Sequence record: PZ171032.1
Direction: 5' to 3' (one strand)
Length of the DNA: 64,000 nt
From: a phage
Position 1 is the stretch's first letter; each line of letters begins with the position of its first letter. This document shows, in pieces, positions 60,612-64,000 of this stretch. A program made the translations under genes and the position numbers. The notes under the pieces are model-generated. The model saw only the letters and a program-made list of their open reading frames with translations, had not been told where the DNA came from and ran no database searches.

Positions 60612-60688
60612 TGGTCTCCACGGAGTGATTCGAACACTCGACCTCCTGATCCCAAATCAGGCGCTCTACCAAGCTGAGCTACGCGGAG
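60612..60688 (-). tRNA. tRNA-Pro (anticodon UGG)
   Basis: Hand fold: acceptor CTCCGCG/CGTGGAG, D-arm TAGCTCAGCTTGGTAGAGC, anticodon stem CCTGA/TCAGG with loop UUUGGGA, T-arm GAGTG-TTCGAAT-CACTC, encoded CCA. Confidence 0.75.
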
Positions 60689-60699
60689 TATTTATTATT

Positions 60700-60774
60700 T
60701 GGTGGCCCTGGGTGGAATTGAACCACCGTCTGGCGATTATGAGTCGCTTGCTTGAACCTTCCAGCTACAGGGCC
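60700..60774 (-). tRNA. tRNA-Met (anticodon CAU; could be Ile-lysidine type)
   Basis: Acceptor GGCCCTG/CAGGGCC, anticodon loop CUCAUAA, T-arm GGTGG-TTCAATT-CCACC, encoded CCA. Confidence 0.65.
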
Positions 60775-60775
60775 A

Positions 60776-60851
60776 TGGTGCTGATGGCAGGACTTGAACC
60801 TGCAACCTATTGATTACAAATCAATTGCACTACCAATTGTGCTACATCAGC
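60776..60851 (-). tRNA. tRNA-Thr (anticodon UGU)
   Basis: Acceptor GCTGATG/CATCAGC, D-arm GCAC-AATTGGTA-GTGC, anticodon stem ATTGA/TCAAT with loop UUUGUAA, T-arm GCAGG-TTCAAGT-CCTGC, CCA encoded; 1-nt spacer to tRNA-Met. Confidence 0.75.
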
Positions 60852-60858
60852 AAAAAGG

Positions 60859-60955
60859 TGCTAGGTGATGGAATCGAACCACCTATGTATTCAACGACTA
60901 CCTCGTCTATTTTCAGGATTAAAAATCCTCGCCCTTGCCAAAGGGCTTACCTAGC
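60859..60955 (-). tRNA. atypical tRNA-like element (about 97 nt; anticodon loop UUUUUAA, so Lys-UUU if functional; possible pseudo-tRNA)
   Basis: Good acceptor (GCTAGGT/ACCTAGC) and T-arm (GGTGG-TTCGATT-CCATC) but about 30-nt variable region with internal hairpin and no encoded CCA. Confidence 0.35.
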
Positions 60956-61053
60956 TCAGTATGTTGACCATGTTGCTAGTCGGCGATGACGACTGTAACA
61001 TTTGATAATCCGGTTCTGCTTCCGGCTTTCGCTTAATTACAAGGTCAACAATA

Positions 61054-61144
61054 TGGCTGAGGGTAATGGAATCGAACCATCATCAAGTCATCCTCAACGG
61101 GACGGTTTTCAAGACCGCTTGAGCACCATTGCTCCCTACCCTCA
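61054..61144 (-). tRNA. tRNA-Ser (anticodon UGA), long variable arm
   Basis: Acceptor TGAGGGT/ACCCTCA, anticodon stem GCGGT/ACCGT with loop CUUGAAA, long variable arm, T-arm GATGG-TTCGATT-CCATT, encoded CCA. Confidence 0.6.
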
Positions 61145-61260
61145 TTTATAAACAATACTGATAATGACACTGATTTTCGAGCAGTTAGTGACTAGTATAA
61201 ACGACGATAAATATCAATGCCATTATCTGTATGATTTATGCATTTAAAAAAATATAAATT

Positions 61261-61348
61261 TGGTGGTGAGTGATGGAGTCGAACCACCCGAATCGCAATT
61301 ATAACAGATTTACAGTCTGCCCCGCTACCCCTACGGAATTAACTCACC
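61261..61348 (-). tRNA. tRNA-Tyr (anticodon GUA), long variable arm, irregular D-region
   Basis: Anticodon arm CAGACUGUAAAUCUG matches recalled E. coli tRNA-Tyr; acceptor GGTGAGT/ACTCACC, T-arm GGTGG-TTCGACT-CCATC, CCA encoded; D-arm pairing non-canonical. Confidence 0.55.
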
Positions 61349-61478
61349 TAAATACTAATATTTAAATTCTTTTTAAAATAGCTAGTGTTCTCACCACTAA
61401 CTATGAGGTATCGGTAAAGTGGTTACCGCCACTTGCCGAAGATTTACTCTGCTAAAGTAAGCTACATTAAAAAGAACT

Positions 61479-61553
61479 TGGCACCCCGTACTGGACTCGA
61501 ACCAGTGTCAACGGCTTAGAAGGCCGCTGCTTTATCCACTAAGCTAACAGGGC
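61479..61553 (-). tRNA. tRNA-Arg (anticodon UCU)
   Basis: Acceptor GCCCTGT/ACGGGGT (two G-U pairs), D-arm GCTT-AGTGGATA-AAGC, anticodon stem GCGGC/GCCGT with loop CUUCUAA, T-arm ACTGG-TTCGAGT-CCAGT, CCA encoded. Confidence 0.7.
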
Positions 61554-61649
61554 ACTGGGTGGCTTTCTTTTACACCTTAGCCGCCAGAAAAGGTGGGAGA
61601 CCATGTTTACAATATTACACTGTTAAGCAAAGTTTGTCAAGAAAATATT

Positions 61650-61990
61650 TTAGCTATTGCTAACAGGCTGTATTTCTGTAGTAAATGGCATAAAAGGTGC
61701 TGGTTTTTCAGCCTCTTCCACTACCACCTCTTCCTCTTCACCAAACATCTCATCATATTCTTCCTGCATTCGGTCTGCCTTATCAAGAACATACTCTGCA
61801 ATGCTTTGACGAATATTTTGTTTGGTTTTCGGGTCCAACATCAGCTCTCTTAAAACTTTGTGAGCTTCTGGAACCATCGCTATAAAAGATTCCTTCATAT
61901 CAAGGATGTTCTTCTCTAACTGAATGGCGTTGGACTCCTCTTTCAGAGGTCTGCCTCTACGGCGACGCTTTTTAGTTGTATCCGCCATGT
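61650..61990 (-). CDS. small basic DNA-binding-like protein (possible terminase small subunit; speculative)
   Basis: ORF track 61650..62108; start set at MADTTKKRRRRGRPLK with GGAGG RBS; basic N-terminus, acidic C-terminus; lies upstream (in transcription order) of tRNAs, spanins and terL. Confidence 0.4.
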
Positions 61991-62334
61991 TTCCTCCATT
62001 ATCACGTGATAGGTGGATTTTATCATAGCAAATACTGATTGTCAAGTTCGCCGCAGGGTGGTATTCCCTGCGACTTGTCCAGCGTCCTGGACCAGCAAGA
62101 CCCAACAAGTGGGTTACCAGAGGCCTATTACCAGCGCTTCGGCTCGACCTTGTTACAGGTTGGCTGGGGTCACATCGTCATGTGCTGGCTGCCCCTACCA
62201 TTTTAAGTGTGGTGCACTATCAAGCCCTCTAAGGGGAACTCAGTCTTCTCCGAACCCTGTTTCAAAGCATCCAGAGATAAAGCCATCAAATTCATCTTTA
62301 AATTGGATATTCATCATGATACACGAAAACAACC

Positions 62335-62577
62335 TCATTGTAAAGCACAAATAAATAAAACATACTTAATTTGTTTGTTATCAGGCTCAGGGTAGAAGTA
62401 GAAGATCTTGCTATCACCGATCTGAACACCACCATCCCAACAGCATAGCCCATAACCTGTATTCATACAAGCTAAGTCGTTGGCAAAATCTATTGCATCA
62501 TCCAGTGCACGAAATTCACCTTCATCTTCTAAATAATCCTCATTCATGGAACGAAAAACGAGCTTAACCTTAAACAT
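62335..62577 (-). CDS. hypothetical protein
   Basis: 80-aa ORF on block strand. Confidence 0.4.
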   Translation of the reverse strand: MFKVKLVFRSMNEDYLEDEGEFRALDDAIDFANDLACMNTGYGLCCWDGGVQIGDSKIFYFYPEPDNKQIKYVLFICALQ

Positions 62578-62653
62578 AGCATTACCTGTAGACCTCGTAA
62601 GTTAAAATTGCATCACATCATATTGCAGATCTTATCAGGTAACACTATTTTTG

Positions 62654-62863
62654 TCAACAGATTCCGGCCTTATCCTTCCTGTCTGCGTATTCTTTAATCG
62701 CAACCTCATCTGCATTAGTGACCAGGTCTTCAAAGTAACTCTCAAGCTCCTCGTCAATGTCAGGAGACCAGCTCTTTTTCCTGTCAGTGTGAATTGCAGA
62801 CTTGTTGAACTTATTACAGTTCTTTGCTACCGGGTTGTTCATTAAGCGCTCCTCAGCGTTCAT
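62654..62863 (-). CDS. hypothetical protein
   Basis: 69-aa ORF; start overlaps stop of upstream gene. Confidence 0.4.
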   Translation of the reverse strand: MNAEERLMNNPVAKNCNKFNKSAIHTDRKKSWSPDIDEELESYFEDLVTNADEVAIKEYADRKDKAGIC

Positions 62864-63431
62864 AGTAAATTTTATTTAACATTACCTCATCTTTTGCAGA
62901 AAGAATACCGAGATATGCATCACCGAATCTACCTGCAACAACCTCTGCATGATACATCACTTCGTTAATATCGTCAAGAGTGATAACTGGATGACCGTAT
63001 CTCTCTGAGTATTGTCTCAGAGTGCGATGTAGAGAGTCATCATCATAGGCAGACTTTTTAATATCACAAACACGACGAATAGCCTTGATGTCGAAAAACC
63101 CTGTACGATACCAACCAAGAAAAAGGTTTCGTGCAGTGTCAACATCTACATCAATACCATCAAGAACCTTATCTACAAGATAGCTGTCATCCTTTGGACC
63201 TGCTTCCTTAGTGCGAATGTAGTTGCCATCTTTTCCAGGTGACAGCTCCTTCTCATCACCAACCTGCATGCCATCATTTGGCGGTGTTAACCACTTATCC
63301 GGATGCTTACGATCACGAGCGTTAGAATGATTACGCTGGAAACCTGGCTTCCACTTGAAAGTTTTCTCCATCTGTTCTTCATTCTGATAACGTTTTGCAA
63401 TCTTTTCACGGTCATCTTTGCGTGGACTCAT
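62853..63431 (-). CDS. hypothetical protein (first gene of the leftward block)
   Basis: 192 aa; GAGGAGG RBS; preceded by ~490 bp of non-coding sequence containing GC-rich structured segment and repeats. Confidence 0.5.
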   Translation of the reverse strand: MSPRKDDREKIAKRYQNEEQMEKTFKWKPGFQRNHSNARDRKHPDKWLTPPNDGMQVGDEKELSPGKDGNYIRTKEAGPKDDSYLVDKVLDGIDVDVDTARNLFLGWYRTGFFDIKAIRRVCDIKKSAYDDDSLHRTLRQYSERYGHPVITLDDINEVMYHAEVVAGRFGDAYLGILSAKDEVMLNKIYYER

Positions 63432-63918
63432 AGCTGCCTCCTCTTCAAGTTATAGAAAAACTTACTGTATCGCTTTGTAACGAGCTTTTCTATCAAACTG
63501 GTGCGATTGCCTTACTTGGTATAGTTTATATGGCTGTGGAGCGATTTAGGGGCCTCATTGTCCGTTTCCACACATAAACTTTATCCAAACTCGCGCGGGA
63601 GGCTCTCAACCGACTCCTTACGGCGCTGGCAAGCTTTCGTCGGTGGTCCACATTAGTGCTCGGCCTTTGGCCTGCGCTATCGCTTCGCTCCCACACATGT
63701 TAACAGACCTGCATGTGTGCACTATGGAGGCCCGGCATCTCGCCCCTCGTAGGCGAGTGCCAATGAAGGGCCGACACTACCTATAGTAAGTAATAAATTT
63801 AAAACATGGTACTTAGGATCTAGTATATTCTACATAAGTTAAGTATATGTACTTTAGTACCATAAGTACTAGATCTTTTATTTTTTTATTATTTAGTTAT
63901 TTTAGTTATATTCTTTAT

Positions 63919-64000
63919 GTGTCCGTATCACGGACAGTAGTGTCCGTATCACGGACAGTAGTGTCCGTATCACGGACAGTAGTGTCCGTATCACGGACAG
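63919..64000. repeat. tandem direct repeats of a 21-bp unit GTGTCCGTATCACGGACAGTA (3.9 copies, truncated by window end)
   Basis: Exact copies at 63919-63939, 63940-63960, 63961-63981 and a partial fourth; each unit has inverted repeat GTCCGT-atc-ACGGAC. Confidence 0.9.

Follow-up and report, generated by a model that had tools for sequence, protein, structure and literature searches.

Several structured RNAs borne by phages have been described without a known function. ROOL, GOLLD and drum often lie near transfer RNA (tRNA) genes, with covariation as their main support, while phage T4 has species 1 and 2 (rnaC and rnaD), two structured RNAs of small size and unknown function that are matured from the transcripts of a tRNA cluster. 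Here we describe an element of comparable character in a 64,000-nucleotide (nt) stretch of phage DNA (sequence record PZ171032.1; hereafter the window). The window comes from an rV5-like phage of the genus Vequintavirus, positions 61600-64000 being 97-99% identical to ~120 rV5-like phages by megablast. The element runs from 62239 to ~62050 on the minus strand, a length of ~200 nt, within the interval 61991-62334 that separates open reading frame (ORF) 75 from ORF74, and all genes around this interval, including the tRNA genes, lie on the same strand (Table 1). Like ROOL, GOLLD and drum, it is phage-borne, has tRNA genes for neighbours and is supported by covariation. It differs from ROOL and GOLLD in size, as these are much larger (500-800 nt), and from all three in that they occur mostly in Gram-positive or environmental phages and have Rfam models, none of which matches the window or T4. 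With rnaC and rnaD it shares a small size, the company of tRNA genes on the same strand and the lack of a terminator of its own, but it has no relation to them in sequence or structure.

We are highly confident that the element is a structured RNA and that it represents, in the rV5 lineage, an RNA family of virulent enterobacterial phages which had not been curated before and is found in ~1,000 records. The fuller statement, namely that it is a gene or co-transcribed module for a discrete structured RNA which is processed and acts in trans, is one for which we see the case as evenly balanced. It is supported by covariation of the RNA type, by membership in the family, by a promoter at the 5' end of the element in a sister clade, and by a recurrent position in tRNA clusters on the same strand. 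In terms of classification, we regard the family as new and its kind as known, that of structured phage RNAs which accompany tRNA modules and have no known function, with a minority chance that it represents a new functional class.

The 344-nt interval is found in all 119 matching Vequintavirus records at 92-99.7% identity, with variation concentrated in 62100-62150. A preliminary description, made from the sequence of the window alone, had singled out this interval as a GC-rich structured non-coding region, and the compositional part of that claim is borne out: the GC content rises to 0.60 at 62050-62199, compared with ~0.39 in the flanks. Minimum-free-energy folding of the interval does not go beyond chance on either strand (z = -1.59 on the minus and -0.73 on the plus strand), and because the folding energy is unexceptional, the case for structure has to be comparative. 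A covariance model built from clade A, the clade of the window (R1), finds exactly one match per genome both there and in clade B, a more distant sister clade from IMG/VR and metagenomes whose ORF75 and ORF74 are 66% and 71% identical to those of the window; the score is 206 bits in the window and 91-101 bits in clade B. Across a 19-sequence alignment of the two clades, 98.1% of the 629 pair cells form pairs, compared with 26-45% when the 3' partners are slid, both sides change in 16 of the 34 pairs, and the observed pairing values were reached in none of 500 shuffles. Owing to the G.U pairs, pairing is more complete on the minus strand than on the plus strand (98.1% vs 93.8%).

The independent compensatory events behind these values can be named individually. 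Between clades A and B, the outer and inner helices of P3 change to GGAAC/GUUCC and CUACG-GACG-CGUAG, and the H6 stem to UGCUGG/CCAGCA. Within clade A, the sequence L015 has changes in two pairs of H6 (GCUCAG/CUGAGC), in the closing pair of H5 and in one pair of P5, FV3 has a further variant of H6 (GUCUAG/CUAGGC), and JEP1 has a double change, from G-C to U-A, in P_L. The claim of a structured RNA is therefore strongly supported by covariation in H6, H5, P3 and P5, on the strand of the neighbouring genes. The hairpins listed in the preliminary description are also present, with differing fates in the comparison: GTCCAG-cgtc-CTGGAC is H6, with its compensatory changes, whereas GCAGGG-tggtatt-CCCTGC is H7, the stem of which is invariant, the loop variable and the whole absent from the sister clade. 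The UUCG-containing stem corresponds to P5, a helix of only 2 base pairs (bp) with compensatory changes, but conservation does not extend to the UUCG of its loop. phiWec189 has a clean deletion of H5 and L033 a partial one, and a motif, CCCNUAGAGGGCUUGANAGUGC, is repeated in the 3' part of the clade B element. P2 is neither supported nor contradicted, as its pairs never vary. The P_L pairing, for which we found ten G.U, eight G-C and one U-A pair with two violations at one pair, is a tentative proposal from the alignment.

Table 1. Features in and around the interval 61991-62334, in their order along the minus strand
Feature	Position	Strand	Remarks
Iteron-like repeats	63925-64000		at the window end
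GC-rich block	63480-63790	minus
ORF77		minus
ORF76		minus
P75	62629-62657	minus
ORF75	62335-62577	minus
Promoter-like site TTTACA-17-TATCAT	62316-62344	minus	in the ORF75/small-ORF overlap; 10 of 12 matches; conserved in clade A
Small ORF	62240-62338	minus	99 nt, 32 amino acids, MRLFSCIMMNIQFKDEFDGFISGCFETGFGED; ATG overlaps the ORF75 stop (ATGA)
Structured RNA, model R1	62075-62239	minus	164 positions; conserved in both Vequintavirus-like clades
P_L 5' strand GCUU (tentative)	62222-62225	minus	pairs with AAGC 62136-62139 in the P5 loop; pseudoknot topology; rV5 type only
P2 hairpin ACCA-CACUUAAAA-UGGU	62197-62213	minus	within the invariant block UAGAGGGCUUGAUAGUGCACCACACU; rV5 type only
P3 two-part hairpin	62166-62195	minus	outer GGGG/CCCC, 5' internal loop CAGCCAG, inner CACAU-GACG-AUGUG
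Invariant 16-nt block AACCUGUAACAAGGUC	62146-62161	minus	contains P4 hairpin ACCU-GUAACA-AGGU
P5 mini-helix GC/GC	62134-62143	minus	loop CGAAGC; the UUCG stem read on the other strand
Second invariant block GGUAAUAGG	62124-62132	minus	family consensus GGUAAU(G/A)G
Proposed pseudoknot 3' strand CUGG (tentative)	62117-62120	minus	would pair with CCAG 62185-62188 in the P3 internal loop
H5 hairpin ACCCA-CUUGU-UGGGU	62100-62114	minus	U-A for A-U in L015
H6 hairpin GUCCAG-GACG-CUGGAC	62077-62092	minus	same GACG loop as the P3 inner helix
H7 hairpin GUCGCAGGG-AAUACCA-CCCUGCGGC	62050-62074	minus	clade A only; no U-tract after it
P74, TTGACA-17-TAAAAT with TG extension	62017-62045	minus	ORF74 promoter; 11 of 12 matches; annotated in rV5
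ORF74	61650-61988	minus	112 amino acids; basic N-terminus with RGRP
tRNA genes (6-7)	60612-61553	minus	downstream of ORF74

The family extends well beyond the rV5 lineage. A scan of IMG/VR with the 23-base pattern AACCTGTANNAAGGTC-N(10-16)-GGTAATGG returned 14 contigs outside that lineage, which R1 scores at 17-40 bits (E 1e-2 to 4e-9), and a blastn search with the copy of T2-like phages matches 994 phage records, comprising Tequatrovirus (including T4), other T4-like genera on Escherichia, Klebsiella, Yersinia, Citrobacter and Enterobacter, and all Vequintavirus. The N4-like Klebsiella phage KpCHEMY26 carries a second variant of the core, and a jumbo-phage contig also has the core; throughout the family there is one copy per genome. 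The core consists of P3, a linker of 2-4 nt, the invariant AACCUGUAAYAAGGUC with P4, a P5 of 2-3 bp, and the invariant GGUAAU(G/A)G, so that the family motif can be written as AACCUGUAAYAAGGUC / GGUAAUGG. The window has both blocks, in this order and with the spacing of 10-17 nt that defines the family, with P3 ending 2-4 nt before the first and a covarying P5 between the two. In a comparison of 11 rows from ~10 lineages, with helices delimited by hand in the distant ones, all 118 listed pairs form. The outer helix of P3 measures 4-6 bp and has 10 different sequences, its 5' internal loop measures 7-10 nt, and an inner hairpin is usual. By contrast, AACCUGUA..AAGGUC is found in every lineage, with only two loop bases varying. 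The inner pair of P5 is C-G, G-C (L015, L066) or U-A (L061, L065, L068), the exception being L027 with G.A. Lineages also have parts of their own: the L062-type element is closed by an 8-bp helix, GUUGUGAC/GUCACAAC, in keeping with a discrete domain, and the rV5 lineage has a 5' module (P1/P2 with the invariant UAGAGGGCUUGAUAGUGCACCACACU, and P_L) as well as the 3' hairpins H5, H6 and H7.

The same comparison suggests that the family core is probably a pseudoknot, in which the internal loop of P3 would pair with a downstream segment. In 7 of 9 lineages, that loop can form 4 or more Watson-Crick pairs with the segment located 3-7 nt past GGUAAUGG (binomial P ~1e-3, for segments delimited by hand), although the T4-type segments give only 3 bp. 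Within the rV5 lineage, the pseudoknot strand is a tentative assignment; the two segments read CCAG:CUGG in clade A and GAGG:CCUC in clade B.

The preliminary description had suggested an Rfam scan, and no known family matches the element. At the gathering thresholds of Rfam 15 (4227 models) the window yields tRNAs only, and at E <= 10 there is no match to the element within 61550-64000, the T4 copy giving only a chance microRNA match. The other 14 loci scanned again gave only tRNAs, and this also holds for nine loci that carry the element. The GenBank records that we inspected have nothing or only hypothetical proteins under the element, and in the searchable full-text literature neither the sequence nor an RNA at the rV5 or T4 locus was found, though a catalogue of candidate viral structured RNAs may include it. 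No match was found in 5,426 Escherichia coli genomes, and the element is therefore not in E. coli chromosomes or their prophages; across bacterial genomes, the pattern TAGAGGGCTTGANAGTGC gave 24 scattered matches, none confirmed by a covariance model. We also rejected mimicry of the decoding centre of 16S rRNA, suggested by the identity of GUAACAAGGU with 16S positions 1497-1506 and of CGCGGUAAU with the 530 loop, because such shared words occur in 9-80% of shuffles.

The likely ends of the element are suggested by its surroundings. In clade B, a consensus sigma-70 promoter (TTGACA-17-TATACT) takes the place of exactly 40 nt that in clade A encode the C-terminal end of the small ORF. The -10 of this promoter ends 7 nt before the conserved GUUCCCC, that is, the 5' end of the element, and L066 has a TATAAT directly upstream of its copy. 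On the other side, P74, a near-consensus sigma-70 promoter, abuts the 3' end of the element and sets its 3' limit. In rV5-like phages, the TTTACA-17-TATCAT site is a possible start of transcripts that cover the RNA, with P75 as the alternative. Terminator-like sites (a GC-rich hairpin with a U-tract) were not found anywhere on the minus strand within 61400-64000, and H7 does not qualify as an intrinsic terminator: it is followed by GAACUUGACAAUC and not by a U-tract.

The genomic context of the family is recurrent in two ways: the element lies on the same strand as its neighbours everywhere, and it is repeatedly found among tRNA genes. Besides the rV5 lineage, where it is in the tRNA region, it starts less than 10 nt after a tRNA-Glu in L061, a 360-kb contig, is followed within ~220 nt by four tRNAs in L062 and two in L069, and lies 1.1 kb downstream of seven tRNAs in KpCHEMY26, in an unannotated gap of 1 kb. 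A same-strand location in a tRNA cluster with no terminator, as for rnaC and rnaD, is thus seen in the window, L061, L062, L069 and KpCHEMY26, but not in T4-like phages, and no tRNA was found in the DNA examined around the element in L064, L065, L066 and L068. In T4 the copy is on the minus strand, starts right after the denV stop and runs to ~64,800, overlapping the annotated N-terminus of vs.8. Over positions 58000-76000 of T4, the only match of R1 is at 64849-64964, with none at rnaC/rnaD (70908-71171), so T4 carries a member of this family in addition to these two RNAs, ~6 kb away from them. The annotated start of vs.8 in T4 falls inside the RNA element (NC_000866 64792-64912, corresponding to L074 6793-6913), and is probably misplaced, as the frame is closed in other T4-like phages, including T2-like ones, where vs.8 begins with MRTFLTGPYLS some 40 codons downstream. 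Its product of ~180 amino acids has a Walker A motif (GGRQSGKS) and no Pfam family, and the window has no homologue of it.

Taken together, these features could be explained as follows. Host RNA polymerase would transcribe the element early, in clade A from P75 or the TTTACA-17-TATCAT site and in clade B from the element's own TTGACA-17-TATACT promoter. Given that no terminator follows, nucleases would then excise the RNA from longer transcripts, as they do for the neighbouring tRNAs, and the product would act in trans by presenting its invariant loops and junctions, which in the rV5 type include two GACG loops, to a conserved partner, for which a host or phage protein or a tRNA are candidates. 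For the specific idea of a stable trans-acting RNA processed together with tRNAs, our expectation is tentative and stays clearly short of even.

A number of points weigh against this explanation. The ends of the RNA, its abundance and even its existence as a discrete molecule are things that we infer from sequence, and the partner is purely a candidate. The element is followed by a promoter but by no terminator, and could therefore be nothing more than the 3' untranslated region of the ORF75 operon or a leader carried by transcripts that read through. The T4-like copies, ~6 kb from the tRNA cluster, immediately precede vs.8 in every case, irrespective of the upstream gene, which makes the element look like a cis element there. 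There are also weaknesses in the structural evidence: the alignment behind the pair counts was fitted to the structure model and its sequences fall into few clades, the pairs of P1, P2 and P4 are invariant, P_L and the pseudoknot rest on few events, and a cruder, unbiased automatic test of the pseudoknot was not significant (P = 0.77).

The T4 arrangement favours the main rival, a cis-acting leader or riboswitch-like sensor, whose core would bind a metabolite or factor and control translation, stability or read-through of what lies downstream, i.e., ORF74 and the tRNAs in the window and vs.8 in T4-like phages. The element has the invariant junction nucleotides, covarying helices and probable pseudoknot that are typical of aptamers, and a core of ~70-100 nt with short invariant junctions and a loop-to-tail pseudoknot would be in keeping with pseudoknotted riboswitch aptamers. 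All T4-like contigs have it immediately 5' of vs.8, its orientation is that of the downstream genes everywhere, and no terminator intervenes between it and them. On the other hand, the element differs from riboswitches in having no expression platform, no consistent regulated gene family and no known ligand: we found no terminator, anti-terminator or helix sequestering a ribosome-binding site, and the downstream genes are unrelated, being ORF74, vs.8 with its Walker A motif, tRNAs (L062, L069) and unknown ORFs, while in L061 the element comes directly after a tRNA. A coding role of the AUG within GGUAAUGG was also rejected, since it is AUA in the window and the short frames after it are not conserved. 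In the window, moreover, the strong promoter P74 stands between the element and ORF74, and it is conserved in six genera of Vequintavirinae, including genera that lack the element. This bears directly on two suggestions in the preliminary description. The element does adjoin a basic gene, as was stated, yet with P74 intervening the adjacency is not a direct transcriptional one; and the proposal of a regulatory leader for ORF74 is weak at best, given that ORF74 has its own strong promoter and homologues without the element, and that the core elsewhere precedes unrelated genes. All considered, we judge a cis-regulatory role to be rather unlikely.

Two further proposals concern what the conserved core itself might do. 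One is that it represents an undescribed class of compact pseudoknotted RNA with a specific biochemical activity, be it binding of a tRNA or of a translation or RNA-processing factor, metabolite sensing, or catalytic self-processing; such a class would be conserved, with ~24 invariant nt, across at least 3-4 unrelated groups (T4-like, rV5-like, N4-like and jumbo phages), and we hold this reading to be unlikely. The other, narrower one is a ribozyme of a new type which, by cleaving or processing itself, would release its own RNA or the adjacent tRNAs from polycistronic transcripts. Phage genomes harbour many classes of small ribozymes, the same ~24 nt would sit in a compact pseudoknotted fold, and the element is found in phage tRNA operons with no terminators. 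Yet none of the ribozyme models of Rfam 15 matches even at E <= 10, we identified no conserved candidate cleavage site, and the idea is a speculation from the pattern of conservation, all of which makes it quite improbable.

The preliminary description had also considered a packaging recognition site, on the grounds that ORF74 might be a terminase small subunit. Neither part of this finds support. ORF74 matches only PHROG 3330, a family of unknown function, has no Pfam family, and its best sequence matches in PDB (E = 0.46-0.71) are not significant. Its conserved N-terminus, KRRRGRGRPLKEES, is one that we take to resemble an AT-hook. While such a basic motif could in principle bind RNA, we rejected a functional link between ORF74 and the element, because homologues of ORF74 occur without the element and because the motif looks like an AT-hook. 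A site acting at the DNA level, either in pac/terminase recognition or as a single-strand initiation signal or origin element, nonetheless has some circumstantial appeal. The terminase large subunit gene is ~2.5 kb away, iteron-like repeats and a putative replication initiator are ~2 kb upstream, and the hairpins could in principle form in single-stranded DNA. As in phage pac sites with their small terminase genes, we have a non-coding segment near the gene of a small basic protein and not far from that of the large subunit. The likeness ends there, however, as the neighbouring protein is no recognisable small terminase, what is conserved is RNA pairing, and elsewhere the element is unlinked to packaging genes: in T4-like, N4-like and jumbo phages the core lies at unrelated positions, near tRNAs. 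A duplex site for protein binding would have no need of compensatory changes, G.U-type pairs favour one strand, and the sigma-70 promoter of clade B is placed precisely where the element has its 5' end. The compensatory pairing and the dedicated promoter thus indicate an RNA rather than a duplex DNA site, and we consider a DNA-level role very improbable.

Among related genera, the slot before ORF74 has different contents. In Mydovirus, Seunavirus, Henunavirus, Avunavirus and Certrevirus, tRNA genes lie ahead of the ORF74 homologue; in most of these genera they are tRNA-Leu, tRNA-Arg and tRNA-Cys, and the same promoter follows them. The lengths are similar (~235 nt), and one could imagine that the element is a decayed remnant of these tRNA genes with no function of its own. 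But ARAGORN and the Rfam tRNA model at E <= 10 give no signal in it, there is no alignable similarity to the tRNA-Leu/Arg/Cys genes of KB57, PVP-SE1, 4MG, Hena1, Av-05 and CR8, and the syntenic tRNA loci of the five genera have neither an R1 match nor any sequence similarity to the element. With strong purifying and compensatory selection acting on it, and a family that spans unrelated phages, the idea of a relic is largely refuted and we give it next to no credence. Readings of the RNA element as a pac site, a terminator, a tRNA relic or a protein-coding sequence are each contradicted by the tests made here.

The statement that the interval has no credible ORF needs to be divided. It holds for the RNA element, which is non-coding, with indels of 1, 3-4 and 14 nt between strains, but it does not hold for the upstream third. 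There, the small ORF has 7 synonymous and 1 non-synonymous distinct changes over codons 1-31 in 14 clade-A sequences, its last codon is hypervariable (D, G, S or V), and the records of inoa, ECP32 and RudolfGeigy annotate it. It is not part of the RNA and closes with a TGA that ends 1 nt short of the RNA core. With its start overlapping the ORF75 stop, the small ORF is translationally coupled to ORF75, and it is under purifying selection except in its last codon. In clade B, where a stretch of 22 nt (AAAGATGAATTTGATGGCTTT) is identical to clade A, the promoter replacement has cut it to 8 codons (MKDEFDGF*). A 5' hairpin that we had considered (h1, 62250-62283) was rejected as an RNA structure: it is the coding sequence of this ORF, and is read as such because its substitutions are synonymous.

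The surroundings of the element include several other features worth recording. A second GC-rich block on the minus strand (63480-63790, ~58-60% GC) lies upstream of ORF77. Inside it rV5 is annotated with a 56-amino-acid ORF78 that looks spurious, and most Vequintavirus genomes have an 18-nt insertion, ACAATAACAGAAGTGCAT, that is missing from the window and V5. The block has no Rfam match and no R1 match, and we rejected it as a paralogue of the RNA element, since its Smith-Waterman score was reached in 41 of 300 shuffles; a 9-mer common to the two blocks, ATAGTGCAC, is not conserved in this one. An exact match of 15 nt to the same block (the TGTGTGGGAGCGAA region) occurs in an unannotated spacer of 120 nt in the tRNA cluster of Klebsiella phage KB57 (L003 2701-2821), a weak similarity reached in 15 of 300 shuffles. 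Together with a spacer of ~975 nt in the tRNA cluster of PVP-SE1 (L004 1677-2652), this spacer may hold further uncharacterised RNAs. Another structured RNA is possibly represented by an island of 60% GC with no convincing ORF in the clade B metagenome contig L030 (1576-1875), ~2.7 kb upstream of ORF75, which has no similarity by blastn to either GC-rich block of the window.

At its far end, the window has tandem 21-nt repeats, GTGTCCGTATCACGGACAGTA, each with the inverted repeat GTCCGT-atc-ACGGAC, which continue past position 64000 and look like iterons or operators. They adjoin a gene whose product, according to the rV5 annotation, is a replication initiation protein or transcriptional regulator. 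Within the tRNA cluster, an insertion of ~130 nt (61349-61478) containing a hairpin, AAGUGG...CCACUU, separates tRNA-Tyr (61264-61348) from tRNA-Arg (61479-61553), compared with a spacing of 5 nt in V5, inoa and most relatives. On the minus strand, a gene of 97-99 nt that resembles a tRNA (60857-60955), and to which ARAGORN gives a 4-base anticodon (atcc) and no identity, has an Rfam tRNA score of only 35.5 bits and is labelled tRNA-OTHER or tRNA-Lys in the records. Finally, 18 GenBank records of the MG0656xx series named 'Campylobacter phage' (host Campylobacter jejuni) are 93-99% identical here to rV5-like phages of E. coli, and their host labels look doubtful.

Overall, this family is of interest for what it may reveal about well-studied phages. 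T4 is among the best-studied of genomes, and yet the element is unannotated there and in the other phage records that we inspected, and is absent from Rfam 15. Two blocks of near-absolute conservation, combined with compensated helices, in groups of phages that have no other nucleotide similarity form a pattern that normally marks an RNA with a defined partner. The position in tRNA clusters ties the element to the question of why virulent phages carry tRNA modules at all, for which the main ideas are the supply of translation and the evasion of defences that target tRNAs. Were any of the activities considered above for a compact pseudoknotted RNA to be true, it would amount to a new functional RNA class, hidden in T4 under a mis-annotated vs.8 start. 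If the element is functional, the gene model of vs.8 would be corrected, as would the spurious ORFs with which this region has been annotated in rV5-like phages, and a deletion of ~100 nt in T4 would offer a tractable route to a new phage RNA function.

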